In this document: in pieces, positions 6,221 through 60,549 of the stretch
How the letters are laid out: each line of letters begins with the position of its first letter
Position numbering within the stretch: position 1 is the first letter of the stretch
From: Raillietiella orientalis
Taxonomy: Eukaryota
Direction: 5' to 3'
Assembly: GCA_036172245.1 (NCBI GenBank)
Contig: JAYWIR010000007.1
Span: forward strand, 3,844,001 to 3,908,000
Length of the DNA stretch: 64,000 nucleotides
Notes under the pieces: generated by a model
The model's database searches: none
Told to the model about the DNA's origin: nothing
Seen by the model: only the letters and a program-made list of their open reading frames with translations
Translations under genes and position numbers: made by a program

Positions 6221-6224
6221 AATC

Positions 6225-7610: not shown

Positions 7611-7649
7611 CCCAGTTCCCCTTGCTTCTCGGAAGGGGGTAGGTGCGTC

Positions 7650-17899: not shown

Positions 17900-19900
17900 A
17901 GGCAAGTTTGTGGAACGTGAGGTCGCAATGGGAGTTACGCGGATCACTCGCGTCGGAAGCAGAAGTGATCTCATCATTGGAACCGAAAGCGTGCAAACGA
18001 GATGATCAAGCGAGATGGGAGACGCCCCCGTTCAGATGACAAAAAGCTTAAGGAGCAAAAAAAAAAAACTTGCGAGGCGCATCCGCACCGAGCACCTCGA
18101 ATTCGTCCGTTCGGCCTTGGCTCCTTTCGATCTTATTTCAAAAACTTACTCTTAATGAGAGACCCTCGCCGTGTTCCAAAAGTCACAGGAGAAGGAAAAC
18201 TAGGCTCGCAAGCACATGCGTCGCTTGCCTCCGCGTCCTTCTCCTACCATGGCAACCGGTGTGTGGCGACATGACGTTTGCGCAAAATCGGATCGCCAGT
18301 TCGGGTTAGGGGACCTAACCCTGGAGGAAGAAGGAGGGACGGACGAAGGAAGCAGAGGCGTGGAGTCGTTCCCTACACCTTCCCAAGCCCCTGGGGAAAA
18401 AAAGAGATGGGAAGGCCCCTTCTATTGGAGTAGAGATAGGAGAGTGGTCTGCCTCCGGAAGATGCACAGGAAAACAGATGGAGGTAGCAGTGATGGTGAC
18501 CACTGCCACCTCCATCCTTCCTCATCTCCGGGGGACGGGATGGAAGAAGGGAGCGAGCCACCGCAGCCTCTGGGGGGGGGGGGGCACTTCCCGGTGGCGC
18601 CTCCCTCTCCTACCGGAGAAACGTAGGAACAACTTCTCCCAGAAGACCTCCGGATACAATCGGAGGAGGATCGCTCTCCTTTTGCAGACTCCTCCCGTCG
18701 CAAGGAGACGGCGGTTCTCCCAACAGCGACAGCAGCTCCATCTTTCCCCTCCGAAAGGGAGGAGGGGACACTCGGAAGAGAGAGGACTGGAAAAACGCGA
18801 AGTCATATCCCCGGAAGTCTTCCTGTAGGAATGGGACAATCCAGGGGCTCCGTGGGTCTCGAGAGGCTACCTGAAAATGAAGCATGAAAGATATGATGCC
18901 ACCCGTTCTAGAGGCTGACACTAGGCAACAGGAACCAGAGGATGGTCCTGGGAATGGGATGACCGTCAGAGATCGTCCAAAAAATTACTTGGCCAGAATG
19001 AAATGGGATCGCTAGGGCAAGGGTGAGGGTGGGGAAGGATGGCAGAACAGGAAACGTGCAACGGGAGCGTACGACGCACAACACGTAAGAAACGATTTTT
19101 GGCTTCCATCCCTCCCCCCCCTCCCCCACAGCTTCCTCCCCCTCCGGGTGCCCCAATCACCAGCCAGCGGCTAGGCAGAACCAGAACCCGCCGATGAGCC
19201 ACTCAGGAGGCCAGCGAGGCCGACGCAGCTTCCAAATCTGAGTCCAGAGCCGTCGTCAGCTCCGCCGGAGATTCTGTCCCATTGTGTCGCAAGGTCTGGA
19301 CCAATATCGGGGTCAGGGAGTCCTATGGCCTGCCAAAACGGCGGAAGTCGGCCCGCCGACATCCACCCTGTTGGGCAACCTCGAGCTGCGGAGGTCGTCA
19401 CGGAGTGAGAATTCACCCCGCCGGATTGACCGGTGCTGCCGCGACGTCACCCACCCTCAAGGCCTCCGCCGTGATTCACTGCCGGACTTAGTGGCGCGGG
19501 CCACTCGACTTGAGACTCGCCCACAGTGCTTCCCGGAGCTCCTCATGCAGACGGCAAAAATGGCATTTAATGCAGCGTTCGCTGTTCCTGGAGAAGGCCA
19601 CTTCCTTCCCCTCTGGTCACTGCCGATGACGTTGACAGCCATTGCAGCCAATGCCATAGGCGGGCCAAGGCCGAGAAAAAGCCCTATGGAAAGCAAAGGT
19701 CGGGAGGTCACTATCGCTAGAAGGCTTCGCTCGTGACACCGTGAAGGTCAGCGCTAGTGGTCAGAGTGGAGTCTCTGAAACCCCCTTTCCGGGCAGTGGT
19801 TGTTGGAGCTGCTCTTAGTAGCGAGCATAGTCTTTGGTGATGGAGGAGGGTTGCTCTTGTAGCCGGTGGCGGTGCAACGGTCCTGATCCCGCGTCTCTGC
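17900..19900 (+). mobile_element. Degenerate LINE ORF1 plus start of APE endonuclease
   Basis: TCVAC...HDVCAK knuckle remnants at about 18210-18285, a low-complexity linker, then ILSHCV and frameshifted ADITLL near 19270-19385. Confidence 0.4.
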
Positions 19901-20869
19901 TCTTCCCGTCATCATCAATGCGGCTGATGGCTAGCAGATCAATGTGTCTAAAACCGCAAAGACGAGGCGGAAGTCGTCAGTCGCTGCTGAGAATGAGAGT
20001 AACGCAAGCGTCGTCTCTAGGGTTACGCCATCGGTCTGATCCTTCGGGTGAAGTCCCCTGCTGCCTCTGCCTACATCGATCGATCTTTCCGGAGAGTCGC
20101 CGTAGCCTACTCAATCCACCTCATCAAACCTTCCGGTTCTGTAGAGAAGGTGAGCTATCCGGGGCCCTGCCCTTTTGCCACCAATTGACCTCTCGACAAG
20201 GGTGCATCTGGGCAACATAGTGAGCATGCCACCGACCACGTTCCTTCCAAGAGTCTCCTCGAGTGCCTCCGGCATCATTCTGGTCGAACCTCCAACCGAA
20301 AAACCATTGCTATGGCCACCTCCGTAGGTCCACGAGTCCCGCTGCCCTTATGCTGTAGCAGGCAGAGTGATCTTCCGTGGGTCCGTGTTGTGTCTGCAAA
20401 GTTTGACAATCGCCGTTCCTCTCATCGTTCTCCCTCCCTCTTCTCCACCAATATCTGAAGAGAGGGGCAAGCTAAACCATCCCATCTGGAATAATTTACA
20501 GAGCTAGGACGACTGCATGGACGCGCGCGAGACAGAAAACACATTCGCTGGGATTTTCTTGGAAACCCCCCATTCCATCCCTTTTCCGTAGCTTCAGAAT
20601 AAATCCTCACAGCTTTAGAAATTCATCCTCAGTTTCCCCAAAGCCGGAGGTGGGTTCTCCAGTTTCCGGTTCTCGTCAACCTCATTGGACTCTTGCTGCC
20701 TTGGAGAGACGGGGGAATCCGTCCGGTCACCGCCACCCTTCCCTGCGTCATTGACAGTTCCTCAGCTCACACTTTCTCTGACTCTTTCGATACTGAGAAG
20801 GCCCTCTTCTTCCACTACCACTGTTTTTTCTGGAGAACTCCTTCGTCCATGATCACCGTCCCTCCTTGA

Positions 20870-22320
20870 GAACTCCTTCATCCACGCTTGGCTCCCGCCA
20901 GCTGCCGCTACCTTGCCGAGTCTCTGCGAGCGGTTCCGGTACGCGTGCGCCTCTCTTGTGGTCTCGACCGGTCCCAAATCTGGAAGCGTTTGAGGCCACA
21001 CACCCCGGGTCGCTTCCTCTTGACAAGACGTCGCTTTTGCGGCCTTCCTTAGAGCTGCCCCACGCGCTTCTTCCCTGGCAACGGAATTCTACCGCGTCGG
21101 GGAGTGTGGCATTCAGGGATGAATTTCCTAGCCTCCTTCGTCCGGCTTCCTCTTTCCGCAGCCGGCGCTGCAGCCTCTGTTGCCCACACGCAGGTGCGAA
21201 TAGTAGGCTCATCTTCCAGGCATCTCCCGGACGCATTGACGGCATCCTCCACATGTGCGCGGGCGGTTCGGTGCCTCCTTACCCTCAGGGCACACGCTGC
21301 GCGGCTCCCGCGCGGTGGAACTTACTGTGCATCCCACCAAGTGGAGCGTGGGCGGAAAGAACGTCCCTTGCCATGGCGCTGCCCTCCTTGAGGGAGCACA
21401 TCGGCATCAATCTGCCGGCAAAATGGGAGGTCTTCTGTGAGATCACCTGCAGGTGCAGGACGCTAGATGGCTGGACCGCGGGGTCAGCTGACAAATGCTG
21501 CGACCTCAAGCGCCCCTCCGAAAGGACTTTTGCGACAGAGGTGAAATGCTGGGAATTCCCCGTGAAGCTCTCGAGTGGTTCCCAGTGCTCTTGAAGAACC
21601 GCAACCCTTCTCTCCGCCCCTCTCTCAAGTGGTGGCGGCGCTTCTGTTGTCGCACTGGGATCTCCCGTGCAACTCCCGCCGACGTCACTGGACCCGGAGG
21701 GACCTGGCATTCGTCAAACTGCCACAGGTGCGGGTGCGTGAATTCCTCCTGCATCCACTTGTGGGTTGCGTTGCCATGCGACCGTTGCGGGGACGTTTGC
21801 GGGAACTGCGACAATCTTCCGGAGGTATCCATGTGGCAACCCCAAAGACTCACTGAAACCTCTCTTAGCGTGTGACGCATTGCCTCCAGCGGCATCCTTA
21901 GCAGCTCTTTGGTGCCTATGCGGGACTGTGTCGGCCTGGAGCGACGCAAGAGGAGGTGGAAGCGACAGGACGCTATCCACTTTGTCCTAAGTTTTTTGAG
22001 GAAGCTCCAACGAGATGGCCCCGCCTGAGAAACATGCGGTAGGAACTTTCCGGCGTCCTCGATAGGATGGCTCCCGGCAGGATGTGATCCCTTCCCGTGC
22101 TCTTCCCCCTCAAATTCATTTTCTTTCTGCTTCGGTTTCTATTTCTATTTTGTTTCATTTCCTCCCCTCTGCTGTCGAAGACATTTCTGCCGGTCTGGGC
22201 ACAGGATTATCGACAGGTTCCTAATTGTCTGGGGACGCGGTAAGGCAGTTGCCCCACACTACCTTTGCATTGTTTGTTTTATTTTGTGAGAAGGAAACGC
22301 TCCCGGCTAACCGGGGCAAA
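20870..22320 (+). mobile_element. L1/Tx1-like LINE 3' fragment (zinc-finger region plus 3' module)
   Basis: LREHIGINLPAKWEV aligns with LREYLGRSIEAKWEV at 5.35 kb; HWDLPCNSRRRHWTR..NCHRCG; T-rich tract and hairpins at 22110-22320. Confidence 0.8.
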
Positions 22321-23170
22321 CCGCATCTCCTCACGAGGGCGGGCGTCTCAGCCGTGCGCCCCTACTCGGCGACCGAGATCCACAGCATCCGTCTCTGGAC
22401 CACGGTCTGCTCCCGCGAGGGTGGAGGTCGGCCGACTCGTGCGTGTCTGGAGGGGCCGCTAGAAGACCACCGCGGCGGCGGCACCACTTGGCGCGGCTTC
22501 CACCCGCCGTCGCCCTGGCGGCCACGAGCTGCGCTGCGGTCGGTAAGAGCAGCGGCGGTCCGTCCCACTGCCCCGGCACCGAACCCTGGAGGACCCCGAG
22601 TGCTGGCTCCTGGGTACGTGAACTACACCGCCAGAGTCCTGCGCAAGAAGTGTGGGAAGGACGCCGGCGGCACCTACTTCGGGTCAGCTCCGTCGTGAGC
22701 AAGCAGGATGCTGCGCACCCTCAGATCGGTCACGTGCCAGCTGCCCGATTGGACGAAAGGCCTCCCGTGGCCTAACCTTCCCAGACTCCGAAGCACTGCC
22801 GCCTCCATCCTGCTGAGGCGCCTATGAGTGCATCGCCGCCCGCTCTTCCCTGCCTCATACGTCATCAGAGGAAGGGAGACTCCAAACGTCCTGCTGCAGG
22901 AGAGCCATACCCGCAGTCCTAAAAGTGTCGACTCGCCCTGTGACCCGGCGACCGCAGGTCGATGGAAAAGAGAACCACCGCCAATCCAGAAGACGGGGGT
23001 CCGTTCTCGTGCTCAGGAGAGAAGCTGGACACGGCTCCACGCTCCACCAGAAGCGAGGACCGCATCGCCTCACGCAGGCCGTAGAGGATGCGGAGTAGAC
23101 GACACAACAGCCATTGATCCCCTTCCTCCCCGTCTCCATCATTTTTTTGCACTGACCTATTGCCCATCCC
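22320..23170 (+). mobile_element. Internally deleted LINE 5' part (ORF1 remnant and APE motif) in tandem behind the previous copy
   Basis: NVLLQESHT at about 22885-22912 (APE LxQEtH motif); the leader shares ccgcatc(t)cctc with 55937-55946. Confidence 0.5.
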
Positions 23171-24959
23171 CTATTTTGGATGCAGCCTGCAATTTTTCCG
23201 AGCCAAATTAGGACAACCAGCCCCCCTACTGTGTTAATATTTATAAAGAGAGCCCCAGTGTGCCATATTTTCATTCCGGATTGCGTTATCGCGCGGGTTT
23301 CTCAGCAACGCGAGTTGAACGCATCCGCAAAGACACTCTCATTTCGAGTTTTACATAAGCGACCCGGATTTCGGGGTCAATTATGTGAAATAAATGAATG
23401 GAATTTTTGCAATAAAGTAGGGACCGCTATCGGCTGGACCGGAAAGGAGGCGACGAAACCTCGCTGGGGACGGGACTAGGGAGAAAGGGAGTGAGGGGGA
23501 GGGAAAGGGAGAGCCCGTAAGAAAACGTATATTGGAGGCAATCGACCGGACTTGCGATGATGGAACTCGAACCACTCCCATCGCGAGCGTTTTATTTATC
23601 CATCGTGGATGAATTGCCTGGAAACCCTGGACGAGAAAGTCGCGTCAAGGTGTCGCTATGGAAAATAGGTGTGGTAGATCTAGTAACAGCGTTCTTTCAT
23701 GATGCAGATTCGCGAATCGAGCAACAGCAGCAGAAAAAAGGAAAAAGCAGGACTCGCCGGCACTTCCTCGAAGTCAGCTGAAGACAATGCCCGAAGCAAT
23801 GGCGGGAAAGTAACAAGACGTGCATCTCTTCCGGAGGGCGAAGAGTCGGATCGTCGACAGTTGTAACCGGTTATAGGGATGCTATCAGTGTTCGTGTCAG
23901 GTGAGGATGTTATCGGGACCGTCCAGCTGCGCTCTTCTCGCCAGTGGATGCTGGAGTCTCCCGGTCACTGCTGTTGCCATTCTGATGAGCCAGAAGACAG
24001 AAGCGGGTCTTCCCCTTTGCAGGAAGGGCAACTATTCCTGACAGAACGAAACGCTCATCCGGAACGCCTTCGTCGCCACCCCCCTCTGGAATCTGCTTTC
24101 TGCTTCCCTTATCCCCCACTTCCCCTTTACCGGCAAGGCAAGGCGGAGCGAAGGACGGACGGTCTCCTGAGGAAATCACTGTGAAGCCCTGCAAGACCGA
24201 AGGTCTGTCCAAAAGAGCTCGCTGTCCATCGATGGAAATGCCAGGACAGGAGTCCCAACGCTGAAGAAAAGATGAAGCTATGGCTCCACTTCGTAAGTAC
24301 TCCTTTGGAGGCTGGGAACTGGGGAAAGGCTGTCTGGCAACCAGAACACGACGAAGCTGGGATGGCGTATCCTTTGGGAGAGCATGATCAGGTCTCGTGA
24401 AGTGCAACGTGTGGCGAAGAACAGGCGGACGAGCATCTGGATGCGCGTCGTCTGGTTTACCCTACGTTGATCCGGGGAGCCTCGCTGAAGACCGTGAGAT
24501 AGGACGCGAAGAAGATGTGGAGTCTCCTCTTCATGAGAGAGGAATGAAATTCGTGGGCAAACCTATTTTCCACCAGCCACGCCAAGGCGTTGGCCTACAA
24601 CAAAAAATGAACAAACAAGTGGGGAGTGCAATTCCCAGAACAAAGACAAAAAGGAAGTTGAAAGGGAAGGTTCTCCGGCACGCAGGTCGGTTGCTGGGGT
24701 TGTCCGGAGCGGGAGATAGATGCAGGCCCGCGTTGGTGGCCTTGCCGCTGCGGTCTCTGCGCTTGGCGCCAGGCGTCGAATCCCTCCCGGGGAAGGATCT
24801 GTCCCGTGAACGGCAAGTGTGTCATGAGTTTCGAGTCTTTCCCATAGGATGACGCCGGTTGGCCTACAGTTTCGGATGCGGCACCGGCAGCATCATCCTT
24901 TGATTGGCCAGGATTGGAAGTCGACCTCCAAGGCCCTTTCGGAAATCAAGGAGCCTTTC

Positions 24960-27250
24960 TAAGTTCCCCTCCGCTTGTGAAAATAAATGAAGGCATGATA
25001 AGAAACAGCGGTCCCGAATTGCAGCTTCTCCCTTCCTCTCAGTGGTGGCGGCGTGGAATTACCAGCGATCTCCGACCTGACTTCTTCCTGTAGGCGGCCG
25101 ACATGTGGGTGACCGACCTCCTTCGCTGCGCCCAAGGTTGCAGCAACTGGCGGGACCGATGCAGTGGCGCTGATGCAGCATCTAGTCGCGATCGCGGCGG
25201 TGCCCGTCGGGAGTCCCCCGCCGCAGCAGGTCCGTGGCGGTGTCCCCTCTCCTGGGAAGCGTCAAGGCCTGATCCAGCCACTAACGGGAGAATCGCAGGC
25301 GGACCAGCTGGAGCTCTCCGGGTCGCACCCTGCGCCCTTGCTCCGGGCGGTATGCATCCGGTGCCGGCTCTCAGGGTACCTTCTGCGTGTTTCCCATCAG
25401 CTCCGTGTTCCTTCCCCTTGGCTGTGGGTGTGACCACCACCGGCGTCACTGGGAGAGGTGGAGGAGCTGCGTAGCTTCCTGAGCTGCGAAGGGCGCGAAA
25501 GAGTGGAAGGGTGCCTTCACCTGCGTCTGAACTTGAGAGCGTTTGGATGTGGCTCGCGGTTGCCCTGCTTCGCTCAGAAGACGTGGAGGAGCTGCTTCAC
25601 GCGCGCGAGGGGAAGGGAGGGGTGGATGGGAGTTCTGCAACCGCCACGATCGCTATCCCGCATTGCGGCAGAGAGACCGTGGCTTCCCACCACTTGCGGG
25701 AGCAACGCCGTAGCCCCGAGGTCCTCCTGGAGCGTTCTGGCGCCGTCCACCTTGCGCGCAGGGTGCGGAGTCACGCCACGTGCCATGTTCAACAGGTTTG
25801 CGTCCTGCCCGTGCAATCCTCATCCATCGATCTCATCTGTTGTTACCTTCCCTCAGCCCTCCCCGTACTTCCGGGTGGCCGACGGGCGAGTCGGTTGTGC
25901 CCGCCCTCTTCTCGAACCCTCCTTGAGCAGTCTCATAGCCGTGATGTCCTTCGTTGATGTTTCTCGTGATCATGATGCCGCTGGGCGTTGCGTGGGAATG
26001 CACGACGCCTCGGCATCCCCCACCAAGTCCTGCAGCTAGACGGGGAGCGTGGAATACCACGAGGATCTCCTCGCCTTCCAAGGAAATCCCTGAGCATACG
26101 TTCAGTCCCGTTAGGCGAGAGAAGGAAGGTGGGATCGGGGGGGAGTCGCTGCTCCGGGCCGTCGACCACGTGGATGCGCGACAACTCCTGGCTCTCACCG
26201 CCGATTGAGAACTTTGGTCTTATGCAACCCACAGGGCTTTTTCGAGAGTGGTCAACCACTCGAGTGGCCTGATGTCGGCACTTACAGGCAAACACGGAAA
26301 GTGGGGCAACATCGATCCCACTTGGAAAAGGGAGCAGGAACCGGTGGCCAAACACCTGTGACCCGAAGCAAGGAGCTATGGAACGAAGAACTGGCCATGG
26401 CCATCCTGTACTTCGTACTGGTACCCAGGGAAGAGTTCGTACCTGTAAGTGGATATTTCGGAGGCCAGCCATGACCATCCGCAACTGCAAACAGTTTGCA
26501 ACCAGTGACAACTTCCACGAGATGCGACTGTTTTGCTACGCGCAACTCATGAGAGGCAGATACACCTGGAAGACGAGAGAGCTTTGGAAACATCAGGCAT
26601 CCAACGCTTGAACCCTGGAGGCCAAAGTCAACATCTGCTATAATGAAGAACAGCTATCGGGAAGAAGGTGGATCTCACCAGGATTTCCAACCGCTACGGG
26701 ACCCGGATGGTGAACCCGCAAGCTGTTGGAGTCACAGTCTTCAGAAGCGACCTCCTCCTGTTTTACCACGGAGGCATCCTGAGTGAAAGCAGGCATCACA
26801 CTCTATTGACAACATCCTAGACGAGGCGCTCTGCAAGGCATGTGGCATCAACGATTTCTGCATTTTCATGCTTATTACAAATAATGACTCTTGTACCGAC
26901 TTTCAATTCCGTGGTCAGCTCCATGTCTTCACCTGCCCAACGCTTTGCCAGAACTGGAACACGCTGACAGCGGTGATCGGCCTGCAGAGAACCAGAACAA
27001 TGCATATCTTAGCGGGGATGTTCGACAGTACCGCAAATGCCCGCGCTACAATCAATCCCATGGTTCGGACCACCATCTCCCTCTGCATTACGAGCGTCGT
27101 GATAAGAAGGGCAAAGATGAGGAAATTCCATTGCTCTTGGCCATTGTTGTTTCACCTCCGCGAGCCGACGACGCACTCCTTCCCGAGTTCCTCCTTTTCG
27201 GTTACCAGCCGACGTCCCTCGCCGCTTGCCTTCCTCCTCGTCGCACCTAC
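24960..27250 (+). mobile_element. Heavily deleted Ty3/Gypsy LTR retrotransposon (5' LTR end, PBS, gag, PR, RT, RH, IN remnants)
   Basis: In order: AATAAA near 24981, LTR-end CA 25040-41, PBS, CIRCRLSG knuckle, VCVLPVQSSSIDLI (protease-like), NSWLSP and FGLMQP (RT), EELAMAILYF..YFGGQP (RNase H), DEEIPLLLA..PEFLLFGYQP (integrase). Confidence 0.75.
25043..25059 (+). promoter_or_regulatory. Primer binding site, tRNA-Leu type
   Basis: TGGTGGCGGCGTGGAAT resembles TGGTGGCAGCGGTGGGAT (complement of the tRNA-Leu 3' end) and lies 1 nt after CA. Confidence 0.6.
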
Positions 27251-27259
27251 TTTCAAGGT

Positions 27260-27775
27260 GTGTTGTCCTCCGGCGTGTGTGGAAATGTTTGACCACTTCC
27301 CTGAACTTCCGAGAAGACCACTCGAGGGTCCCATTTACGTGTGGCAGATGCCGCCTGTCGCGACGATCGCAGTTTCGCGCTGCGTCCGCGGAATCGTGGC
27401 GCCTGGAACCCCCGACAACAGAGGCCGGAATAACACAAAAGCCATCTCCTTCGGCTTTTCTTTCCTAAGGATTGCAGCTGAGCCACAACCAGGGGGAACT
27501 TGCCGGCATCTTTGAGGGAGCAGTCTGTGATCCCTTCCCTTAGGCTTCCTTCCAAACATTTTGGTACTTTTTTTTGTTCAATATTTATTTTATTTTATTT
27601 GTTTACCTTCCTCCTAATTTCCCTGTGCGAGCCTCTCCCGGCGACTGCTCCGAGCAGAGGACTCCTGCGGAATATGCGGAAGTGGTGGCTCTGTACTGCC
27701 ACTACGAAACTTGTCGACAATTTATTGACAAAGTTTACATTTTTTGCAAGAAACGTCTCGGCGTAACCAGGTGAA
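27260..27775 (+). mobile_element. Short LINE 3' end (ORF2 last helices plus 3' module)
   Basis: TIAVSRCVRGIVA..AISFGFSFLRIAA matches TMYCIRAIVKA and AVHFAVRFIRMA of other copies; terminal aagaaacgtctcggcgtaaccaggtg. Confidence 0.7.
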
Positions 27776-28049
27776 AGTGCTGTCCATGACTCCATGCCCT
27801 CTGGACAAGCAAGGCAAGGAGCACCCGGCTGAGCGTCTGCCACGGTCGGCGTTTTGTTCCATATTTGCTCGCCGAGCTGTGCACGACTTTGCTGCGCAAA
27901 GTCTGCAGCCGGAAGGCGCCCTCGTTACAACAGAGGAGCAGCAACGGGGGAGCTTCAACAAAGATCCCACCCCCTTCCCATCCGCGACAGCTGAAATTCT
28001 TGGTGCCATCGTGAATTCGAACCTCAGCCACACCAGAGCAGGAGAGTCT

Positions 28050-30590
28050 TCCCACGGAGCTACACCATGCTTCGCAATGCAAACGGAGCTTTCCACCCGA
28101 CCCATCCACACCTTCCTTCCCAGCAAAGCCTGCAGCTGAGAAAGCTGATCAGGAGTGTATGTCACCTTGAGATCGGAGAGGATCCGTTCCTTCCCAAGGG
28201 AGGAGGCTTAAGTAGCTCGAGCAACTGGCATCCGATTGAGACCGTGAATTCGGAGATCCTCAAGCTGATTTCGAGACTGTGGACAACGCAACCGGAAGGA
28301 GACGGAAGCTGATCGATGAACCTGGAGCAGGCTTGCGCTGCACCCAACAAAAGCCTGGAAGGCAGCCTGTTGCGTGCTCACACCCGGCTCCGAATACGGC
28401 ATTGCCGTCGGGCTCGACAGCCGTCGGGCTTCGAATGCCCAGTCTGGACAAACGAACTGCAGAAAGAGCTGGAAAAATCCATAAGAGCGTTCCACTTAGT
28501 CAAGAAGGAACTCCTTCTGGAGCTCCAGACCTCCGGGGGGCTTCCTACCATCCTATTGGCTCGTCGCGCCTCTCGTGGACGAGATTAAGAAAATAGATTG
28601 CGGCAGCCGACACGTCTACGGTGGTGTCTCCAATAGGGAGGGCAGTAGGAACCCTTCTCTCTCCGATGCACACTTCGATTTCATGCTCGACAGGTATCGA
28701 CATTTTCGTTCCCTGTCTTCGCCGGCGGCACAGAGGACTTGCTTCCCTTGCTGCCCATATGCACCCTTGAGGCATCTACCGGGCTATTCTTCGAGCCGAC
28801 AAGAAGGAAAGCGGATGCAAAAGTTCACAGGATGAAGCTGACTGTCCTTCCCGTCGGAGCTGCTAGGGCAGGATTGCCAGCTTGCACCTCCTCGGCGATC
28901 TCCGTTTTCGATTTCTTGCTGTGCTCAAGGGCCATCTTTGCCCTCAGAAGCGTGTTCTGTGGGCTGTCTCTCGAGGTGTACAAGGCTCTGGGTTCATTCC
29001 TAGGCTGCGAGTCTTTCTTTCCGGCACGGGACGCGACTGAAAGCGCTCACGCTGCTCTGCTTCTACGGTTCCTGCTTTACTTGCCTCCTCCTCCCTACGA
29101 GACGATAAGGCTAACTGACGGACTCGTGTGGAATGCCCTCCGGAGCGTGGCGGCCGAAAGACTTGTCAGGTCACGCCTGTCGAGAATCCGGACCACCAGT
29201 CCGCATCGAACTTCAAGTGCATTGGCAGAGGCCAGGTCTGGAGGCCCTGTTCCGAAACGACCGCTGGCTCTTACCAGCGCGCAGTCTCCTCAGGCTCGAG
29301 CTTGTCTACGAGACACTCGCGTCTCTCGTACTCCTAAGCCGCAACAAACAGAGAGAAGACGCTGAACTTCCCCATGGACCATCTGGCCTCCTTGTTGCCG
29401 CAGAATCCCTGCTCCTGCCTTCCTGTATCCCAACTTCAACGCGTGGCAGATGAAGGTTACCTATTCCTAAGCACGGGCGAGCACGGGCATTCGGGCGAGT
29501 CCTGCAGCTGCTGCACCGAGTTCAGCACCTCGGCAGGGAATTCTTGCAAGAGGAACGGAAGGAATTCAACGAATGAAATCGCATCACGGTCACCCTTTAG
29601 ACGCAGCGCTACCTTCTGCTTAAAAGCATGAAAGCGGCAGCCTATTGGTTAGTCGAGAGGTAATAGATCAGTGAAAGAAACCCTTGGGTGGATGGATGAT
29701 AAGCAGATCCACCGACGCACTATTCTTGCTCACGGACCTCTATGGTGGATGGAGACTCTGAACATTCAACGGGTGGTCCGGTATTTCAAGCAGCTGTCTT
29801 GAGCACTCCTGTGCCTCCCCACCAGCAGCAACATATGGCACTGCTCTACTTGCACTGGGAACATGTGTCGCGCAGTCAGCGACGGAGTCGCACGAAAGAA
29901 CGCATTCCCCGAATCGTGCCGGGTGCCAGGCCGTCGAGTTGCTCCCACACCTGCTGTTGGAATGCCAGCAACGGGTGTGGGATGACCCATAGTAATGCAT
30001 CGCTTCAGTCCTCCTGCGTCTGGTCTTACACTTCCGGCATCTCAAGAGGAGGTTCTTTGCGAAGAGAAAACCGTCCAGCCCCTGGCGACACGGCATTTGA
30101 ACAGCAGCCGTGGATCGTCGTCACGCGGTGGAGCAGCGGCGGTACACCGGAGGACGGCCATTATTCATTAGACAGGGCAAAAAAATGTTTGAGGACATGA
30201 GGATCCCAGTCCTTTATTTTATGTGATCCCTCCGTTCGCACAAACATCCTCCTCATGATGAGCCGGTGCGACAAGATTTTCATCTCCACTCCGAAACCAA
30301 AAAAGACGCCGCCTGCGTCGCAAGAGGTTGCGAAGATGCAGGAAAGCTTACCAATGACCTGGCTCTCCTATTCCCATCCTGTTCTTCAAGTGAGTTGAAA
30401 TCGTCTAGTGAATCCTCATTTTATTTCTATTCATTTTGACTACCTTTGTTTATCTATTTTAGCTCCTGATCCCTCCTCTTTTATTTCTGTATTTTATATG
30501 TGAGGCCGACCCGAGAGTCATCGTAATCCAGGACTGAATATGCCATATGTTTATTTATACATGGTTTTAGTTCCAACGCAACCCGGAGAC
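28050..30590 (+). mobile_element. L1/Tx1-like ORF2 remnant from RT to zinc finger, with 3' tract
   Basis: FLPKGGGLSSSSNWHPIETVNSEILKLISRL (RT domain 1), EKSIRAFHLV, EGSRNPSLSDAHFDFMLD, ASTGLFFE, then GCQAVELLPHLLLEC; T-rich tract at about 30415-30500. Confidence 0.75.
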
Positions 30591-33811: not shown

Positions 33812-35222
33812 CTATTTCTGTAAGTCATACAATAACTGAATTTCTTTTGCATAAATGCCATCAACATATGGGGTTTCAAGTATTATAGGAATGTCATTGA
33901 AATGTGGGCTATTTACAAGGCAAGAAAACCCTGCAATTCCAATTTTACCTTTTCCAATGTTTTCATGCCGATCTAAATGACAACCCAGTTTTCCTAAAAG
34001 TAATCTATGAATGCAGTAAACAGATTAACCTTGCCTTTGGAATCATTGATATGAGCAGCCATTAGATATCTCCAGCCAATGATGTCCTCAAATTCTTGAA
34101 GCATTTTCTGAAATCCATGCGGGTTACTGAGATCATAACCTAAAGTCAACTTGTACTAAGCAGATGTAGTACACCAATTTCAAACCTGCAGCAAAGGCAT
34201 GGCATGTATCAAGACAGACACCAATTCGAGACTGATCTTCAATCAACTCGATTATGTTTTTGAGTTCTTGAAATTCCCCTCCTACTGTGTTCCCCTTATG
34301 AAAACAATTTCTTACTTTACAATCACAGTAGCATTCCTTACTTGCTTACTCATATTTTCCAAAACAACTTTAACAGATCTGGTCTGTTTGAGGGAAACAT
34401 TAATGCTTTCTGCAATCCTTTCTATGCATTCTTCTCTGGTGATTTCTCCACATGTTGAACCTAAAGTGCAAGGATATCATTTACGGATATCCAATGCTAA
34501 TGGTCAAATGAATTCCTTAAATTATGTGTGTTTGTATGCACATGTATTTACATGTAAAGTTACTCCACATATATATTTACCTGGATGGATATTATATAAG
34601 CTTAAACCCAAGTCTTCACATCTTTGCAACTCATCAAGAAAAAGATTACGACTCTTAATCAAGATATCTTTCTTTGGTGAACCCAAATTAAGCAAATACG
34701 GAGCATGGGGCAGAATTAAATGGGAAGGAAAATTATGAATCTATACAATTTCAAATATACAAATAATCCTTGTCAGTTCAGTACGAACACGGCAAAAATG
34801 TTTAAATTTTGCCACAACACTGCTATTCAAAGGCCGACTATCCCATCTTCGTTGTGATCTCAGAAACATGCCAAACGACTTTGCGCCGATTTTCGCTGCT
34901 TCTTCGACAGCATTAAATACACCACCTAACGTAAATTTGATCCTGTTTTCAATTTCTCCTTTCGACAAGAAAGAATACCTGCTATGGAGACATGAGCACC
35001 GATGAATTTCGAACCAGTACACAGAGGTGAACCATTCATACATCCCACAGCTGTTGCGAGCTGATTTTCATCCAACAATTTCTGGGGAGCTTTAGCTCGT
35101 CTCCGGACTTTTGTTTTCTTCGGCTCAACATCTGCGGCAACCTTAACTTTTAACTATTTATCGTAGTATTGTATACCTGCTTTTACTTTTTCTTTTCGTG
35201 TTCTGCTACGGGTTTGCATCAT
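33812..35222 (-). CDS. apn-1: Endonuclease IV family AP endonuclease (Nfo/APN1-like), multi-exon
   Basis: KFIGAHVSIAG, PHAPYLLNLG, YNIHPG, VLENMS, CLDTCHAFAAG, HINDSK, LDRHENIGKG, IILETP; TAG at 33812-33814. Confidence 0.93.
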
Positions 35223-36655
35223 TCTGAATTTACTAAAGGTGAACTCAAAATCAAACTATGAACAAAACATCACAGTTTATCATGAAAGAGCAAAGCATTT
35301 ACCTGCAACCACATACGGTGGTCACTGCTGCAATTGGAACACTTCTGTGCATACTCACACAAGGCTGATTTTGAAAACAGAGTTACGCTGATCTCTTAAC
35401 AACCGTAAGGGATCACCGGGGTTAAGGTCAACAAGGAAGCGCACGCGCTTTGTTCCTCATTTTCAGAAAATATAGTCTAATATAACTGTTTCACATGTTT
35501 GTAAATTGACCTATACTCGACGTAGTCATTGTGAAGACTGCCTAATCCAATCAATGATTGCGCAGATAAAGACTATAAACAAAATCATGGAGTGATCCTG
35601 CTGACTATCGGTGAAACACGACGTCAGTTTCATGGATGCAATAATTATCCCCAAGTGTTTAAAATGCTTTATATCTGTCATTGGTAATGTTTCTCAATGA
35701 GCCCATCGGTAAGTTTATCTGGGAATTTTATTGAAAATTTAAAAGTACTTGCACTTAGATGCAAGCATTTAGCATTTGCCATTTTCCTGGATGTTTCTTG
35801 GTGGTAGCCATTAAGGGTTGAAATCATTTACAGTTACAGATTTGCACATTCACCGTGTTATCCTTGTGATCGTATTTCAGGATTTTTCAATTGTTTACTA
35901 CAATTTGCAGTGATTTTCAACCAGCATTCCATTTGCATAAGGAAAATGTAGCTGGCAAAAATTTCCAGTAAATGGCAATTTCAATTTTTTGTAATAAAAC
36001 TAATTCAGCTGTGTTACTAACTCTATTGCAAGTTTAGGAGCCAAAAGTTAACTGATCGCATAGTTTGGCCTATGATCATTTACTATATCGTACTGCTACT
36101 TTGTAAATTACATCCTTCAATAGCAAATTTTGCATAATTTACTAGGCCAAACATTCAAAACAAAGGTATATTGTGCTATCAAGTAAATGCTTTAGAATAA
36201 CTACATGCTCAGCAGAATGTGAGTTACAGAATAAAAATTTTTTTCATCAGACACAATGTTTATTCTTACAGCTTAAGTTATCATTTGTTAAAAACACTCC
36301 ATGTAAATGGACAAAGAAAATAAATTATTAATTTTCATCCGATCAGTCTATCAGTATACACATTAGGCTAAACAAAAATTTCTATTACATTTTGGATTAC
36401 TGATGAATTTGATTCATTCCAATTCCTTGAACTGGACATTACTTTTACAGCCCTTTTTCATTCATGAGAGATCATAGCACCCTTTTTCAACCTTGAAGTT
36501 TTCAATAAAAGAAATATATGACATGAATCTATTTCTCTAGTTATAAAGGTGATTATCTGATCAAACATTGCAGACCTAAAACATGTAGAAATAAATTCCA
36601 TCATTCTCCCATGAAGTAATTACCAACATGACAAATCACTATTAATATAATGACA

Positions 36656-38302
36656 TTAAAGTATTAATGCCCGTGGTGTCATAAAATGCTGCAACTCTGC
36701 TTCACTAATTTGAGCACGAGCTTGCTGATGTTCCTGAGTTAAAGCAACTAACTGATCAATAGCGATTTTTTTTATTTCTCCAGTGAGCATTGAACCAGTG
36801 CTGTAATCCTGGTGAACAGAAACATGATAATTTTAGTAGGAATTGAAGATTGGTACTTGCATTTTTTATCTGTTGTAGCTGGTCTTCATCTTTTAATAAC
36901 ATACGCAAGTACTGATAGGAAATATCTACCTCACAATTTCCTCCATGGAGTCTATGTTCCTCTACTGTTGCCTGACCTCCAGAAAAAGCATACTTGTTGA
37001 TCTGAAGTACAAAAAACAAGGGGGGGGCAGGGAGAGCAATTTGGAACATGAGAGCAAGTTTTTAACATTCTTTACTTTATTGCGAATCTGCTTTGGTGTA
37101 TCAGTCATAAAGATGCAAGAATTACAAGATGATGCTGACATTTTTGTTTGAAGTCCTTGTAATGATGGTAGAAAGGTGGAATGTAATAATGCTGGCTTGG
37201 GAAATCCTAATCGAGGTGCCACATCTCTCATCATACGAAAATAGGGATCCTTTAATTAACTTAATATACAAGCCAAAAATTAAATTACTTGATCAATGGC
37301 ACAAGGTATTAAGCATTGAATGTTTTTGCTTTTATTAAAGATAAATGGGAATGAAGTGCTCAAACATGGTGCTGCCTGCACAGCTGGGAAGGCTATTTTA
37401 CCAATATTATCACTATCACAAAAGCCAAAAATACCCTTAACTTGATTAAAGGTAACATGTTTCTGAATGCTCACGACATTCTGGTAAAATTCTGGGCACT
37501 GACTGAAACATCAGCTGTATTTCCACAGATAAACCACCCTCTCACATACCCCATAAACTCAAAATCCGAAAATACAAAAGTTTTATCTCTGTGAAAACCA
37601 CAGGCAATTATGTCTTTTGCATTCTCATGTGCCAGATCGATGGAATCCCGTAGATCAAGGTTTTTCCATAAAAACTTTTCATCATCTGTCAACTGAATGA
37701 TTAAGGGAACATTAAAAACATCTTGAAGCCATCTAAAATATTTTTCTTAAATTTTTATATAAAGCATTTTTCAGTGATAGGCATAAAACCAAAGTTTGTG
37801 TATACAAACAGTTAATACGAATAACAAATCCAATTACTTTGTAAATATGAATGGAATCAGATGACCAATATGAATAGCTGATGATGAAGGTCCTCTTCCT
37901 GTATACAAATAAAACGGTTCACGTTTTTCGTAACTATTTAGTATTTGGAGTAGGTCACGTTGAGAAAAAAAAATATTTCTCTTAAGTAAATGATGCACTG
38001 GTTTCCCAATCACATGTTCAAATCGTTGTAGCAACTCTTCATCAATTTTTGAACAACCAAACCTTGCTATGGAGGAATTATTACAATTTAAAACAAGAAC
38101 AGCTTGATGGTTTCATTTCTTCCAATAATGAACCCCAACATAATGTTATTCAGGCTTTGCATGTTCTTTGTGTTCCATAATACTTACTTATGAGTTTATC
38201 ATAATCAATTCCGGTATGAGATTTTGCTTCAACAAGCCAAGGATCCACAACATCATCCGAATCAACATCACCTATTTTTATGCGAGAAAGTTCATTCTCC
38301 AT
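36656..38302 (-). CDS. WARS1: Tryptophan--tRNA ligase, cytoplasmic, multi-exon
   Basis: [49 protein letters not shown]; short N-terminus without a WHEP domain. Confidence 0.96.
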
Positions 38303-49600: not shown

Positions 49601-50224
49601 ATATTGATACTTAAGGTTGGAATTAAGGTATTTATCAGTTCTGCTATAGCTTTCTGTAAATCAGCATCTTGGAATTCATGAAACATATGCAGAGTATATT
49701 TGAAGCTGCATCAGCATGTATTGATAACAGTACTTAAATTTGAACTCTTGAACACACTATCTAATAGTACTTTTTTTTATTTTAAAATAATTTTGCGATT
49801 TTTGAAAGTGTGGTTTATACATGTTTTTAAACAAAAGGATTAAAGAATTAAAAAAAATAAATCTCATGAAGTTAAGATTGTGTTTTTTTTGTTTTTTTTA
49901 GACTTTTATATCAGTCACGAAAAAGAGGAATGCTGGAAAATGATTTGTTGCTTTCAACTTTTGCACAAAAATATTTAGGAAGTATGAATGAAAGTCAGCT
50001 CCATCAATATGACCAGCTTATCAACAAACCAACCTGTGATTGGGATATTTATCATTGGGCAGTTGGTGTGACTAATGAATTGTTGTTGACTATAGGAAAA
50101 TAGCACATTTTCAGGTTTGCAGCCAACTCCTCATGAATTTGATAATGAAATTATGGACTGGCTTAAAACACATGCAATGAATAAGGAGAGAACACTGCGT
50201 ATCAGACAGCCAGATTTGTCCTAG
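46624..50224 (+). CDS. SDHAF2: Succinate dehydrogenase assembly factor 2 (Sdh5); exons 46624-46739, 49902-50065, 50115-50224; 129 aa
   Basis: [87 protein letters not shown]; intron phases consistent. Confidence 0.93.
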
Positions 50225-50398: not shown

Positions 50399-52806
50399 AT
50401 GCTCAGTAGGACAGTCAGGCTGCCTTGGCAGCTAAAGAATGTGTTTTTTAATTCAAAAGTACGGTTTAATGTACCTTATGAACCTTTTACAAAATTTTGG
50501 CGTGATCTTCACTTGGCTGTACCTTTAATGGGTAGGCAGGTTATTTACGAAAGAAAAAAAAGATCTTCAGTCTAAGCACAGCAAATACTAATGCCGGCAT
50601 TGTCCCCAACCATGAATGATGGCACGCTGGTTAAATGGCTCAAAAAAGAAGGAGATCGGTTGCAACCTGGAGATACATTGTGTGAAATTCAAACAGATAA
50701 AGCTATTATGCCATTTGATGTTGAAGAGGACTGTGTTCTTGCAAAGATATTGGTAATATTTGGTGCTCGTAGTATAATTCGCTTTAGGTACCAGAAAATA
50801 CAAAAAACGTGCCTGTTGGAAGACTAATTGCTGTACTGGTTGACCTTGATGAAGATTGGAAATCAGTTTCAATTCCTGAAGAAATGTCTACCAATACCAC
50901 TTCTTCAGCGCCCACAGATGTCTCAGGCACAGGTATCTACGGATGCAAACATTTTGAATGCTATCTGGGTTTAGTGGAAGGACAGCAAATAGCAATGCCA
51001 GCTCTTTCACCTACTATGTCAGAAGGCACTTTGTTAAGGTGGTTGAAGCAAGAAGGAGAGTCATTTCAGCCTGGGGATGTTCTGTGTGAGATTCAGACTG
51101 ATAAGGCCGTCATGCCTTTTGAACTGGAAGAAGAAGGCATACTGGCAAAAATCTTGGTAATTCATGAATAATAATTTTGAGTATTGTTATTGTATTACCA
51201 AGATGAAATATTTACGTAGATACCTGCTGATACGAAAAATGTCCCAGTTGGAAAAATTCTTTGCATTACTGTTGGATCTGATGAAGACTGGAAAGCAGTG
51301 AAGGTACCTAAAGATGCTTTGAAGTCTCAAGATGCTTCTAGTCCTTCACAAGAAACATCAGGAACAAGTATGTCATGCTGATCTTCCAATGCTAAGTTTC
51401 GTCTTTCAACAGTTCAAGGACAGACATTATTGATGCCAGCTCTTTCTCCAACAATGAGTGATGGCACATTGGTAAAATGGCACAAGAAAGAAGGTGATGA
51501 AATAAAGCCAGGGGATGTCCTATGTGATATACAAACAGACAAGGCAGTCATGCCTTTTGAGGTAGAAGAGGAAGGCCTTCTTGCAAAAATTTTGGTAAGA
51601 GTGCTTTCAAGCTAACTTAGTTTTTTGGGGTTGGTTAGGTGTCTGAAGGCACTCAAAAAGTTGCTGTAGGGAGCCTGCTAGCTCTTATGGTGGCTCCTGG
51701 TGAAGATTGGAGAAAGGTGCAGATACCTGTTGATCCTATGCTCCAAGTTTCCTCTGAGAAAAGTGCTGCTCCTGGCGTCATTTCTGAGTTGGGTATCCAA
51801 GCACTCTTCTAAATTCAAATTTTTTGTGTAGTGCAAGTCAGGTTTCCCAGGACAAACGTAATATTGTGGAAGAAAAGATTTCTTCCAGAGGGGCTCAGGA
51901 ACAATCTGGGAAAGCAGAAGCTATGGGTGACTCAGGATATGAACTCCAACTAGACATAAGTATGGCACCTAAATTGAGTGAGCCTTCTGGACCACACCTT
52001 AGTAGGGCTGGTGCTAAGTTTAAAGACATTGAACTCACTAATATCCGCATAGTTATTGGCCAACGATTAACTCAGTCTAAGGTAAATAATAAATCTAGGT
52101 TGAAAGTGTAAAGGGCTGGATGCTTACTCATAGATGACCATCCCTCATGCTTACATGACTCTTGACTGCCCAACAGATTCTTTGAACAATCTTGTAGAGG
52201 ACCTTAAATCTAATGGGTTTCCTCTTTCCATCAACGATATACTGATTAAAGCCACTGCCCTAACACTACGTCTTTGCCCAGAAGTAAATGCCATTCGTCA
52301 AGGGAATCAGGTTACTAGATGTGCAGAAACAGATGTTAGTGTTGCTGTAGCCACAGATCGTGGTCTCATCACGCCAATTGTCAAAAATGCCTCTAGACTC
52401 AATCTGCTACAGATTTCCCAATGTATGAAAGATTTGGTTTCCCGAGCACGGCAGGGCAGGTTGCAGTTACAGGAATTCCAAGGGGGAAGTTTCACGTAAG
52501 TCAGATAAACACATGGTATTAAATAATTATGTCGTGTTTAGAATTTCGAACTTAGGAATGTTTGGAATTCGAGAGTTTCAAGGCATTATCAATCTTCCCC
52601 AGTGTGCCTTGATTGCTCTAGGCAGCTCACGTGCTGTACTTGATCCTTCTACTTTGTCACCTTCTAGGGTCATGACAAGTACATTATGCTATGATAGCAT
52701 GGCCGTAACTCCGGATTCTGCGAGTAATTTTCTAATCACTTTTCGAGAAGTTTTACAGAATTCATCATTGCTGACTGTAGGAGTTAAGAGAAAAGCTGCA
52801 TTGTAA
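50399..52806 (+). CDS. PDHX: Pyruvate dehydrogenase protein X (E3BP)-like protein with three lipoyl domains, about 10 exons
   Basis: Transit-like N-terminus; three MPALSPTM..C(E/D)IQTDKA..AKIL domains; E2-type core [19 protein letters not shown]; catalytic DHR motif reads DSM. Confidence 0.88.
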
Positions 52807-55719: not shown

Positions 55720-57815
55720 ATCCTTTTTGACTGCAGTTTTTCTGGTTTGTTTTTCTCTTTTTGTTTGTCTTTCCTTCCCTCGTGCTGCCGAGGCTCACCC
55801 TGCTGGCCTGCGTGCCAGATCCCGGCAGGTGCTTTTTCGTATTCATAAGTAAAGTGGTTGGATCACACGTCCTGCCACAGACATATAGGTGTGTTTTATA
55901 AATAAACGCCCCGGCGTGACCGGGTGTCAACCAGTGCCGCATCCTCGACGCCGCACCGACATGTTCTCTGTTCGCTCCGCGGGTGGTGTATCGACTGCTC
56001 TTTCTTAAGTGGTTCGTGTAGATTTGGTGATGGCGAAGGCAGCCATGCCTGACACCGCCACCAACGAAGACCGGAGGAAGATGCCCGCATCTCCCCCTGA
56101 GACTATGTAAGTGGCCTATGTAAGTGGGGGGTGCCCGCCCCCACAGAATCGTCCCTTGCACCAGTAACGGCTTGGAATGCCGTGGCCATGGCCTCGTCGC
56201 CGGCAGCCATGGCTGAATAAAAGGCCAATATTGAGGAGGGTTACAATCCAGTCCTCCTCTACAAGTTAGGTCACTTGTACACTCCAAAGAGCGCGGTCAC
56301 CTTCTCGAAGGCGATGTATGCGGACGGCATCCGACAAGAGGAGCTTCGTGGGATGACCGTCCTGAGCGGGGGTCAGGACGTTGAGGTGGTCTGCAGGCAG
56401 ACAGACCTTGCCCAACGACTGCTGAGGACTCCCATTGCTATGGAAAGCAGGGAGCTCCTCCCGATCATGTTGGACCGTTCGATGGTGGTCCACCTTCTTG
56501 GAATAACGTTGCAGATATCCAAGGAGATCGTCCGCAACAAACTCGAGATATATGGTACGGTCCAACCACTGTGGGCGAAGCCCTCTCCTTTTGTGAAACA
56601 CCTCGAGTTTCTGGAGGGCCTCACGGTAGCGCGAATCACCATGCGCGAGGGCTGTGGGTTACCTCACAAGCTAAGGTCTCCAGGGAACTGGTAGACCTGT
56701 GGTACATGGGGAAACCCAAGTATTGCTCGCACTGCAACGCTTCAGACCATCTCAAAAAGGGGTACCTGAATGTGCAGTGCCAGCAGTGCCACTCCACGGG
56801 GCACACCAGTACGGTGTGCCCGCAAAGTATCGTCCGCGTCGCGTCTGACAGAAATGTGAAAAAGCTCGCGGCTAAAAAACAGAAAAAAATCGGTAGCGCG
56901 AACCGCCAAACAAACTGCTATCTCCGTGTCACCAGCCGAGGCTGCTGAATCAACCTCAGCCGAAAGGGCAGAAAAGGTTGAGGGGGACATCCAGGAAGGA
57001 TGACAGGTGGCTAAGAATAAAAAAAGCCTGAAGAAGGCTGAAAACGCAAAAGGGATCACGACCCGCAGCGAAAATCCACCTCGTCGCGAAAAAGCAAAGA
57101 GCTGCCGCGTGACTGTTGACCGGATCTTGGCGATCGACCAGTGCGGAGCCCCTGAACTCGCCGCTGCCGCGCCACCCTCCCAAAGAACAAACGAGGGAAG
57201 CGAGGCGGCGCCGTCCGTCGGGAACGACGTAACTCTAGAACGAGCGATGGAAGAGGTCGCCGCCGCTCTGCCACCGCCCTCTCAGGCTCCGAAAAAGGGC
57301 TTGAGGGATCCGGACTCTACGAAGGGGTCCGAGATCTCGGACTCCGACGCAGAAGCCGAGAAAGCATCTTCCGCCGCGTAAGCATCTCGCCGGAAGTCTG
57401 GAGCCCAGTCCAAGACTAGTCGGAGGCACATCTCCCCCGTCGAAGGGGAAGAGTTCGCCTCCTGCAGTGAGGGTGCAATGATCGTGGGCACTCGGGACTC
57501 CTTACCCGAGAACGTCCCACTCCCCGCCAGGGAGGAGATGGAGGGGGTGGAGACCATCCAGGTGTCTCAGGCGCTCATCTTCCCCGAAAACCTACCTCCT
57601 ACTCAGGTGGGGTGGGGGTGGGGGGGGGTCGACACGCCACTTTTCCAGCATTAATGCCGGGAATCGCTTCTCACCGTCATCTGCGGATCGCCTGTTGGAA
57701 CGTGAACGGGGCATGCAATGACGGCAAGAGGCGGGACGTGGCCGCCATCCTGCCGTCCTTCGACCTTGTGCTTCTGCAGGAGTTACACGTCATTTCCGGA
57801 GCATAAGCGCAGGAG
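55720..57815 (+). mobile_element. LINE 3' module followed by leader, ORF1 and the start of the APE endonuclease
   Basis: VVHLLGI..EIVRNKLEIYGTV (RRM-like), CSHCNASDH and CQQCHSTGHTSTVC knuckles, LRIACWNVNG..DLVLLQELH. Confidence 0.85.
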
Positions 57816-59760
57816 ATTTCTCATCCGGTCACGCTGAGGCGTTTATTTCATATAATATAAACAAGAAAAATCACAATTCTATAAAATAAACCAGTTGGGA
57901 ACCAGGCTTCCAACCGACGACTGGACAAGGATCAAGAGAATTTTCCTGGAACGCAGGCCGGAATAACAGAGTTCGGAACGGTGTGTGGGGTCGGGGAAAA
58001 GAAACAGATAAAAACAAAAGAAAAACAATGAATGGGGGAGATCGGGACAAGGGTCTTTGGACTTGCTCTGGAAGGCACCGGGATATAAGTAATAGCACCG
58101 GGAGTTCAACAGAGCGAACGGGGATGGGATATAGGTGGGCGAGAGGTCACAGGGGTCACCGGATTACGACGGTCTGAAGAGTTTGTAAACCGGCGATGGA
58201 TGCAGGCGATGTCCTCTTTCACCTCGTCACGAAGATGAGGCCGCCTTGCAGCCTTCTCCATGTATTCAGCTGCAAGCAGGTGTGCCTCCCTTCGCTGCGC
58301 TGACAACTCCAGGGCGTAGCGGCGGGCCTTGACGATGGCGCGAATGCAATACATGGTTGCGACAATCACGCCTACCGAAAGTCCATTCCTGCTGAAGAAG
58401 TGTCGCAGCACATCCATGGCGGTGCCTCCCTGCGGCATGATGGCTGAAATCGGCCTTCGCCGCAGTTCACGGAAGTTACCGCAGTCCAGCAAGAGGTGCG
58501 GAAAAGACTCGATCTCTCCGCACCTCAAACAGTTTGGCGAAGCAGCTCCCCCGGAAACGATGCTTCGCTGCCGATTACAATGGAATCCCCCGTGTAAAAA
58601 CAGCAGCACATCTTGTTTCCATTTTAAAGGGAACACGGAGCTGTCCAAACAAACATAGGGAACCACTACCTCTTCGGGGGCGCACTTAAAAGATCGCTTC
58701 ACCGAAGCAGGCCCTTCTCCCGATTTCGAGGAGTGGCAGGTTGCACCAGCTCCTTTGTCGTCCAGCCACCAAGGAGCTTAGAAACTCCTGCAATTGTGAA
58801 GGAGAACTCCCATACTGCCGGTTGGCAACTGTCATTGCTTGCCCTAAGGGCAGACAGAGCTGCGGCGAGGGGTGTGGCGGACAGACTTCTTGTCCTGCAT
58901 GACTACGCCGAGGGGATCGCTCAAGAGAAGTCGCAGGCGTCGAAGATCTTCCTGGCGCATTCCTTCGGAAGCGGCCCACGATGCAAAAGATTTCTGCCGC
59001 CATGCATTAATGTTCATGGGGCGGCAGGAAATCCAACTTTGGGCTTCCATCAGAGAGGACAGCTGCCTCAGCGGGAAGCCAAACCCTTTCCTGGTGTGCC
59101 GAAAGTGGGGCAGCAACGAAAGTAGTCCATCGCTGTCCGTGCAGCGTCTTAGTAGAAGGCGCGCGGGTAAGCACCACGGCGTACACCAGAGCTTGGCACA
59201 GAGCCGCAGCACACGAAGCTGCACCTGCAGCTCGCTGCTGTTCATGTCGAGGATGCCTGCATCCTGACGCGGCGTCACCAAGTCTGCATCCTGACGCGGC
59301 GCCACCAAGTCTTTCAGTCTGACCCGGGACCTTGCAGCACCCCACAACGTTTTGCGTAGAAACCGCTGCGCCCAGTTCTTGACTTCCTGGGGAAGTGGGC
59401 AAACAAAAAACGGGGGGCGGAGGAGGGGAGCACCGAAGGTGTTCCATATACTGGCCGGTTCCGGCAAGACGAACTCGCCACAGGCGGATCCAGTCGGGCT
59501 GCCCCAATAAACAGAGATCGAATGGAGGAAGACGGGAACTTCGTCCCTTCGGGACGGGAAGATTCTTCGCTTTCCGGAGCCAGGGAAAGGAAGAAAAGGC
59601 TCGCCATCTTGCGGCAGGCCCGCCCGGTGATGGCGGGCACTTCACACACGAAGACGTCCGCAAAAGGCCTGCCGAGCGGTGCAGCGCGTCAACCGGTAAG
59701 AGGGGCGCCAATACGGTTGTCCAAGAAGCAGGTGGACGGCCGCAGATGCAGGGGCTTTGA
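57816..59760 (-). mobile_element. L1/Tx1-like ORF2 3' half plus 3' module
   Basis: RPFADVFV, IWNTF..FLRKTLWG..LVAPRQDAG, FLHGGFHC..NCLRCGEIESFPHLLLDC, T-rich tract, AATAAA and terminal motif. Confidence 0.85.
59258..59311. repeat. 27-bp tandem duplication with one mismatch
   Basis: tgcatcctgacgcggcg(t/c)caccaagtc twice; encodes DLVAPRQDA/DLVTPRQDA on the minus strand. Confidence 0.9.
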
Positions 59761-60549
59761 ACTTGAAGTAATGATTGCGTGATTGATTGAACCCTAATTT
59801 AGCGGGGGTGATGCGAGTGATTCTTCTTTCGGGGTTGTAGTGCAGCACAGCATTTACAGTGAGCGGGCGGAGCAGTGGGCCGCGTGCCTCGAACCTGAGG
59901 ATGGTGGAGCAGAATGAACGAATGGTCCGATTTCGAAGGAATGGTATTCATTCTTTAGGCACTATTTTCATGGGTTGTGTGAAGTTGCTCCGAAAGGACT
60001 GCTGCCGATTGTTCAACAGCGGAAATTTGTTTTGCACCATATATGCTAGAAGGGTACGATCAGGATGATTAAGAGGAATAGTTATGGAACACCTGTGAAG
60101 TGCCCATCTCAAAAGGAAGATTAAAGCAATCGAGTGAATATTTGAAATAGGGAGTCAGATAAGGCCAGCAAAGGCCATGGAGTATTGCGTCAACAAGCGC
60201 GGTGATGTAATGGGGAATTGAAGCAGGAAACATCCTCGTGAATAGGAGACAGATGGGGACGGTAATGATTAGGGAAGTCAAATTAAAAAGGAACATCTCT
60301 TTTAAAAAAAGGGGAACACGGAATTTTGTGATTTCTCTGCAGCATTCGCTCCTAACAAACCGATTGCGTTGAGGCGGGGTGCTGCTTCGGTGTGCAATAC
60401 GGTTTTGTCAACGGGGTTTGAGTTAAAGCCGGATTGTGAGTGAGCCCGGCACGGGAAGAAATGAACAGAAGATGAAAGCGAGTTAGAAGCCTTCTGGGAA
60501 GAGAAATGCAATGATTGGAAATTGGAAAATTTTTAGTATTCTTGTGAAA

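Follow-up and report, generated by a model that had tools for sequence, protein, structure and literature searches.

The window analysed here, 64,000 nucleotides of Raillietiella orientalis contig JAYWIR010000007.1, holds on its forward strand a ten-exon gene for a PDHX-type protein that runs from an ATG at 50399 to a TAA at 52806, with introns of 35–63 nt (Table 1). The first exon encodes a stretch with 7 R/K versus 2 D/E among its first 45 residues, followed by three lipoyl modules, a linker and an E2-like core. On the same strand, an SDHAF2/Sdh5 gene (window 49903–50224, Pfam E 1.5e-20) ends 174 bases upstream of the PDHX start.

Table 1. Parts of the PDHX gene, in window coordinates.
Feature	Position	Strand	Remarks
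Exon 1, ATG and probable mitochondrial presequence	50399..50531	+	start picked from the sequence; targeting predicted
Lipoyl module 1	50577..50932	+	exon 50577-50752, phase-0 intron 50753-50787, exon 50788-50932
Intron 3, 42 nt, phase-1, in frame, stop-free	50933..50974	+	between modules 1 and 2
Lipoyl module 2	50975..51367	+	exon 50975-51156, phase-0 intron 51157-51219, exon 51220-51367
Lipoyl module 3	51413..51792	+	exon 51413-51594, phase-0 intron 51595-51638, exon 51639-51792
Intron 7, two candidate donors (51788, 51793)	51788..51831	+	51793 typical, frame off; 51788 in frame, atypical
Linker exon where the E3-binding domain is expected	51832..52081	+	no recognisable domain; 3' end is the first core helix
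Core exon, 2-oxoacid_dh fold	52134..52495	+	Pfam E 1e-30; top matches named PDHX
Last core exon, YDSMAV (His to Ser) and stop codon	52542..52806	+	

Both Pfam and a lipoyl HMM confirmed the three complete lipoyl domains, with TDKA in each, that a preliminary description of this DNA had reported. Pfam Biotin_lipoyl (PF00364) matched every N-terminal half (E 8.5e-12, 1e-12 and 3.7e-13; 3/3 above the Pfam cut-off), and with the HMM, which was built from single-arm relatives, the spliced model yielded three full domains at 117–128 bits. The intron layout also repeats as described: a phase-1 GT-AG intron precedes each module (45, 42 and 45 nt), and a phase-0 intron splits each module directly after AKIL (35, 63 and 44 nt). 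Every module closes with a linker. An array built by exon-pair duplication is supported. In protein, the arms are 62–65% identical to one another. Pairwise comparison of the N-half exons showed 90–91% identity at second codon positions, whereas four-fold sites matched at only 4/15, 5/17 and 9/20 positions. Conserved second positions next to saturated four-fold sites mean that the copies are old and under purifying selection, not an assembly artefact; their earlier reading as diverged copies is hence borne out, and both assembly collapse and a recent copy are ruled out by the saturated sites. All three lysines are predicted to be lipoylated.

Symmetric modules of this kind could exist mainly for alternative splicing, providing one-, two- or three-arm isoforms, as had been suggested before. 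The frame is indeed kept when exon pairs 2-3, 3-4, 4-5, 5-6, 2-5 or 3-6 are skipped, and a two-arm Diaphorina model and a one-arm Cryptotermes model exist. However, frame symmetry is expected from duplication by itself, the short models from insects are incomplete predictions that may be artefacts, and the full three-arm Bemisia protein is encoded on a single 4317-base Logan contig. With introns as short as 35–63 nt, intron definition usually prevails over exon skipping, which speaks against such use in this gene; in the model with the 51788 donor, the frame is lost when exons 6-7 are skipped. We consider a main role in splicing improbable. If intron 3 were retained, the frame would be kept and arms 1 and 2 would lie 14 residues further apart.

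The core places the gene with PDHX. In a 32-row tree of hand-chosen rows, calculated with a simple model without mixture, it fell into the PDHX clade (100/100), apart from E2/DLAT, and nested in a subclade composed mostly of insects and crustaceans (96/86), adjoining a mantis shrimp (93/84); a group of this core with the genome's own DLAT was rejected in that tree (AU p = 0.00995). A larger quick tree (67 rows) gave the same placement at weaker support (SH-aLRT 87). The core branch in the 32-row tree measures 1.05 versus a median of 0.38, marking a fast-evolving lineage, and no close relative appeared among the best 150 of 11029 matches, where the best identity was 56%. In the lipoyl tree, all three arms fell among PDHX-type lipoyl domains (99/96). 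Furthermore, YDSMAV aligns with SDSRVV of human PDHX (6h60) and with CDHRVV of human E2, in agreement with the non-catalytic core proposed earlier. The DLAT/PDHX phylogeny that had been called for therefore groups the protein with PDHX, not with DLAT, and identity with DLAT, tried as a candidate, is ruled out by the absent catalytic His and DHR motif and by tree placement, the core showing no grouping with E2. Assuming an in-frame junction at intron 7, the domain order lipoyl–linker–core is homologous to that of E2. Of the initial label, E3BP/PDHX, the orthology with PDHX is thus upheld by core and arm trees, but the designation as an E3-binding protein is not, as the docking domain is not recognisable.

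In the linker, Pfam gave no match to the E3-binding (docking) domain PF02817 at E up to 1, and no HMM match to it was obtained in three genomic frames and four spliced models. A whole-domain docking profile scored −0.8 for the window versus at least 29.3 in 237 relatives and 18.1 in the genome's own, equally fast-evolving DLAT. Among lipoyl-bearing relatives without the catalytic His, 237/243 had a docking-domain match (236 at a stricter threshold). Feature searches of an atlas with both linker frames returned no usable match, and in the PDB, the linker query hit nothing but the beginning of the core. When the linker exon was folded from its sequence alone, with no control, strands were predicted at low confidence (pLDDT 62, pTM 0.37). 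In the natural-splice frame (51834–51950), a docking domain that looked plausible by eye was discarded at z 1.6–1.85 (77/1000 and 11/200 shuffles).

PDHX forms without this domain have a precedent in octopus isoform records. Short isoforms of Octopus (P0147, P0150) and Argonauta (P0155) combine two arms and a core, and most of the E3-binding domain is missing. Octopus sinensis also has a full isoform (P0148) that is one clean segment apart, whereas in the window it is the genomic sequence itself that is without a recognisable domain.

The lineage is fast-evolving and the local docking HMM also misses the docking domain of the genome's own DLAT, so a very divergent working docking site is conceivable. 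The gene would then encode an ordinary working E3-binding protein with three arms. One linker frame keeps the G-x-x-G-x-x-L-x-x-D-I spacing (z 2.06, 12/300 shuffles) and includes a 39-residue piece of z 3.0 (7/1000 shuffles; 2/841 window frames), which gave z 0.86 when rescored over a different window; a weak remnant of the docking domain may be present in this frame. It begins in phase 2, as the octopus isoform pair would imply, and the genome has an E3-like gene (contig C26). Against a working domain stand the whole-domain score, far under that of all 237 relatives, and the lack of a Pfam match noted above. Moreover, the E3BP marks given in PMC10156792, i.e. an Arg next to the loop glycine, a Leu two positions past the Asp and a hydrophobic residue three further on, correspond in a by-eye alignment to S, S and P, while the last two marks are hydrophobic in 226/227 and 222/227 relatives. 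That the linker still adopts a highly diverged docking fold and tethers E3 is unlikely in our view. The same source names as E3BP criteria an E2-like domain order, an inactive core, an E3-specific peripheral subunit-binding domain and an M3-like motif, the last of these described for fungal proteins (PMC10156792). An E3-specific peripheral subunit-binding domain was not found in the window PDHX, and we hence do not class the protein as a working E3-binding protein.

The preliminary description overlooked that no docking domain is recognisable, and also a frame problem at intron 7. The natural junction after module 3 (51793/51831), whose donor agrees best with the donor pattern of this genome, shifts the frame of the core by one base and leads to a stop at 51951–51953. 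The donor at 51788 keeps the frame with a 44-nt intron and has a T at +3, found in 0/16 other donors of the PDHX gene and DLAT. Longer introns from 51793, such as those of 80 or 161 nt, or an extra 41-nt intron at 51858–51898, keep the frame as well, and one base may be missing from the assembly, which would also restore it. From the octopus isoform pair we infer phase-2 introns round the docking exon, and this favours a phase-2 reading from 51832. Were the break real, the gene would be decaying or would encode a short three-arm protein without a core. The best-fitting donor, the atypical T of the frame-keeping one and the decayed docking domain all point that way; yet the core is open and conserved in each of its two exons, with canonical introns, the gene is the sole copy found in the genome, and many junctions, among them a 161-nt intron from the same donor, retain the frame. 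A real break is thus highly improbable in our estimate; most likely the assembly has slipped here or the splice site is unusual, and the gene is not dead.

Arm numbers in relatives depended on the query. With the core exon, the best 120 of 517 matches, mostly vertebrates, comprised 108 proteins with one full lipoyl domain, 10 with none and 2 with two. With the region from arm 1 through arm 2 as query, which favours multi-arm proteins by design, the best 120 of 394 matches split into 112 with two arms, 6 with three, 1 with four and 1 with one arm and a partial one; none of these carried DHR, and several were C-terminally incomplete. Three arms occur in the whitefly Bemisia tabaci (QHB15552.1 / XP_018900832), the psyllid Diaphorina citri (KAI5733200.1) and the leafhopper Macrosteles quadrilineatus (XP_054262430.1). 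The protein with four lipoyl domains, annotated as uncharacterized, comes from the lanternfly Lycorma delicatula (XP_075234196.1, P0121); for chains of the E2 family, one to three are stated in reviews. Two further three-arm proteins nest with leafhoppers and planthoppers in the quick tree, and the arms of one of them group with the copepod Tigriopus in the lipoyl tree. A Cyamophila record has two full arms and begins with the tail of a third. Two-arm forms, frequent among the arthropod PDHX matches, were seen in thrips, termites, stick insects, aphids, ants, bees, Tigriopus, Octopus and Owenia. Judging by these sequences, multi-arm PDHX is widespread in invertebrate records, and three arms have arisen more than once.

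The lipoyl survey recommended at the outset, with three arms in 6 of the best 120 matches, hence comes near to the finding that three domains are common in relatives, which was to count against the original claim. The contrast to the one-arm human PDHX holds, but rarity does not, as hemipteran records have three or four arms. With two to four arms in many invertebrate database records, a count of three is modest news. Reviews describe E3BP with one lipoyl domain (PMC6270654, PMC2880790), and a search by title and abstract opening, with most subscription journals outside its scope, found no published description of a multi-arm animal E3BP.

In the lipoyl tree, calculated from a short alignment of 86 columns, arms 1 and 2 are sisters (98/96) and arm 3 is not placed. 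Arms 1 and 2 stem from a duplication in this lineage, probably on an older two-arm state, and we propose that similar arm expansions occurred separately in other arthropods. Within-species arm pairs in Lycorma, Timema, Periplaneta and Owenia fit repeated duplication or gene conversion. In termites, isoforms part exactly where a module begins, and one psyllid model runs off directly after AKIL; these break points, judged from protein models, suggest that insects share the exon borders. A cassette between two phase-1 introns duplicates frame-neutrally, which makes recurrent arm duplication plausible. In metagenomes, a search for animal loci with the same introns found the QTDKA motif in 0/77 loci.

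The hemipteran multi-arm proteins are the closest known systems. Like the window PDHX, they have tandem PDHX-type lipoyl domains with TDKA in each and a core without the catalytic His, and they belong to the same arthropod PDHX clade. In contrast, they keep an E3-binding domain that can be recognised (Pfam E 6.5e-5 in Bemisia, 0.0065 in Diaphorina and 0.00039 in Lycorma). Their arms are 71–90% alike, compared with 62–65% in the window, and none group with the window arms. Human PDHX (6h60) shares the lipoyl–linker–core order and the inactive E2-like core, in which Ser takes the place of His at the equivalent position. It has, however, a single lipoyl domain where the window PDHX has three, and its E3-binding domain is intact where none is recognisable in the window PDHX. 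Escherichia coli E2p (AceF) also carries three tandem lipoyl arms; it is, however, a catalytic, bacterial and intronless E2 with a docking domain, and represents a separate expansion.

A genome search revealed four E2-family core loci: the PDHX gene, of which only this copy was found, DLAT (contig C34) and two genes that we named DBT-like (C14) and DLST-like (C27) from our own reading of the translations. The separate, catalytic DLAT (L009:243-2240) keeps DHR, and its core and docking domain are strongly diverged. It has one lipoyl match at the locus in the genome search and one lipoyl domain in the spliced model, whereas two are given for human E2 (PMC2880790). Of 11 candidates obtained with a short DLAT exon as query, none was an arthropod DLAT at E up to 0.001. 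Equal-scoring matches to a 33-residue lipoyl-like start were noted at three loci (L004, L005 and L006 on contigs C33, C72 and C81); around L004, frames resemble broken bacterial genes by eye, possibly an old endosymbiont insertion.

We consider it likely, with a probability of about 0.7, that the gene encodes a non-catalytic PDHX core subunit that supplies extra lipoyl arms and whose tethering of E3 is doubtful. As the animal's presumably single PDHX orthologue, the protein would be imported into mitochondria, and its inactive E2-like C-terminal domain would sit next to the true E2 in the core of pyruvate dehydrogenase, by analogy with mammals, where E3BP is incorporated into the E2 core (PMC13311838). 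Three lipoyl-lysine arms might then shuttle acetyl groups and electrons redundantly among E1, E2 and E3; the tandem lipoyl domains of E. coli are reported to act redundantly (PMC8421416). These arms would be added to a complex whose E2 has just one, and the array would have grown by tandem duplication of a two-exon cassette between phase-1 introns. The docking domain appears to have decayed beyond recognition at the sequence level, and the E3 tether may accordingly be weak, altered or lost, with E3 held weakly, by other means or by E2. Human complexes without E3BP are described as retaining 10–20% activity and some affinity for E3 (PMC2880790), which makes a partial reliance on E2 plausible.

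A stronger version would be that PDHX gave up E3 tethering altogether and became a pure three-arm scaffold, with the one-arm E2 docking both E1 and E3, or with E3 loose. We put this forward tentatively, at somewhat less than even odds. If true, PDHX can be retained for its arms alone. The apparent loss of the docking domain outweighs the arm count in interest, because it would split the two jobs of PDHX, arm carrying and E3 tethering. It would also offer a natural test of why the core keeps an inactive subunit, a point described as unexplained in PMC10156792. Arthropods may furthermore have shifted the multi-arm role from E2, where it lies in mammals, to PDHX.

Elsewhere in the window, a leucine-rich-repeat gene at 11906–13520 on the minus strand presumably resembles SHOC2/Sur-8. 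At 34741–38112, also on the minus strand, exons look by eye like an endonuclease IV-type gene and a tryptophanyl-tRNA synthetase; single exons of this region had no Pfam match at E 0.001. The window is AT-rich except for GC-rich blocks (54–63%) at about 4000–10000, 18000–30000 and 56000–60000, in which broken frames resemble retroelement remains by eye.
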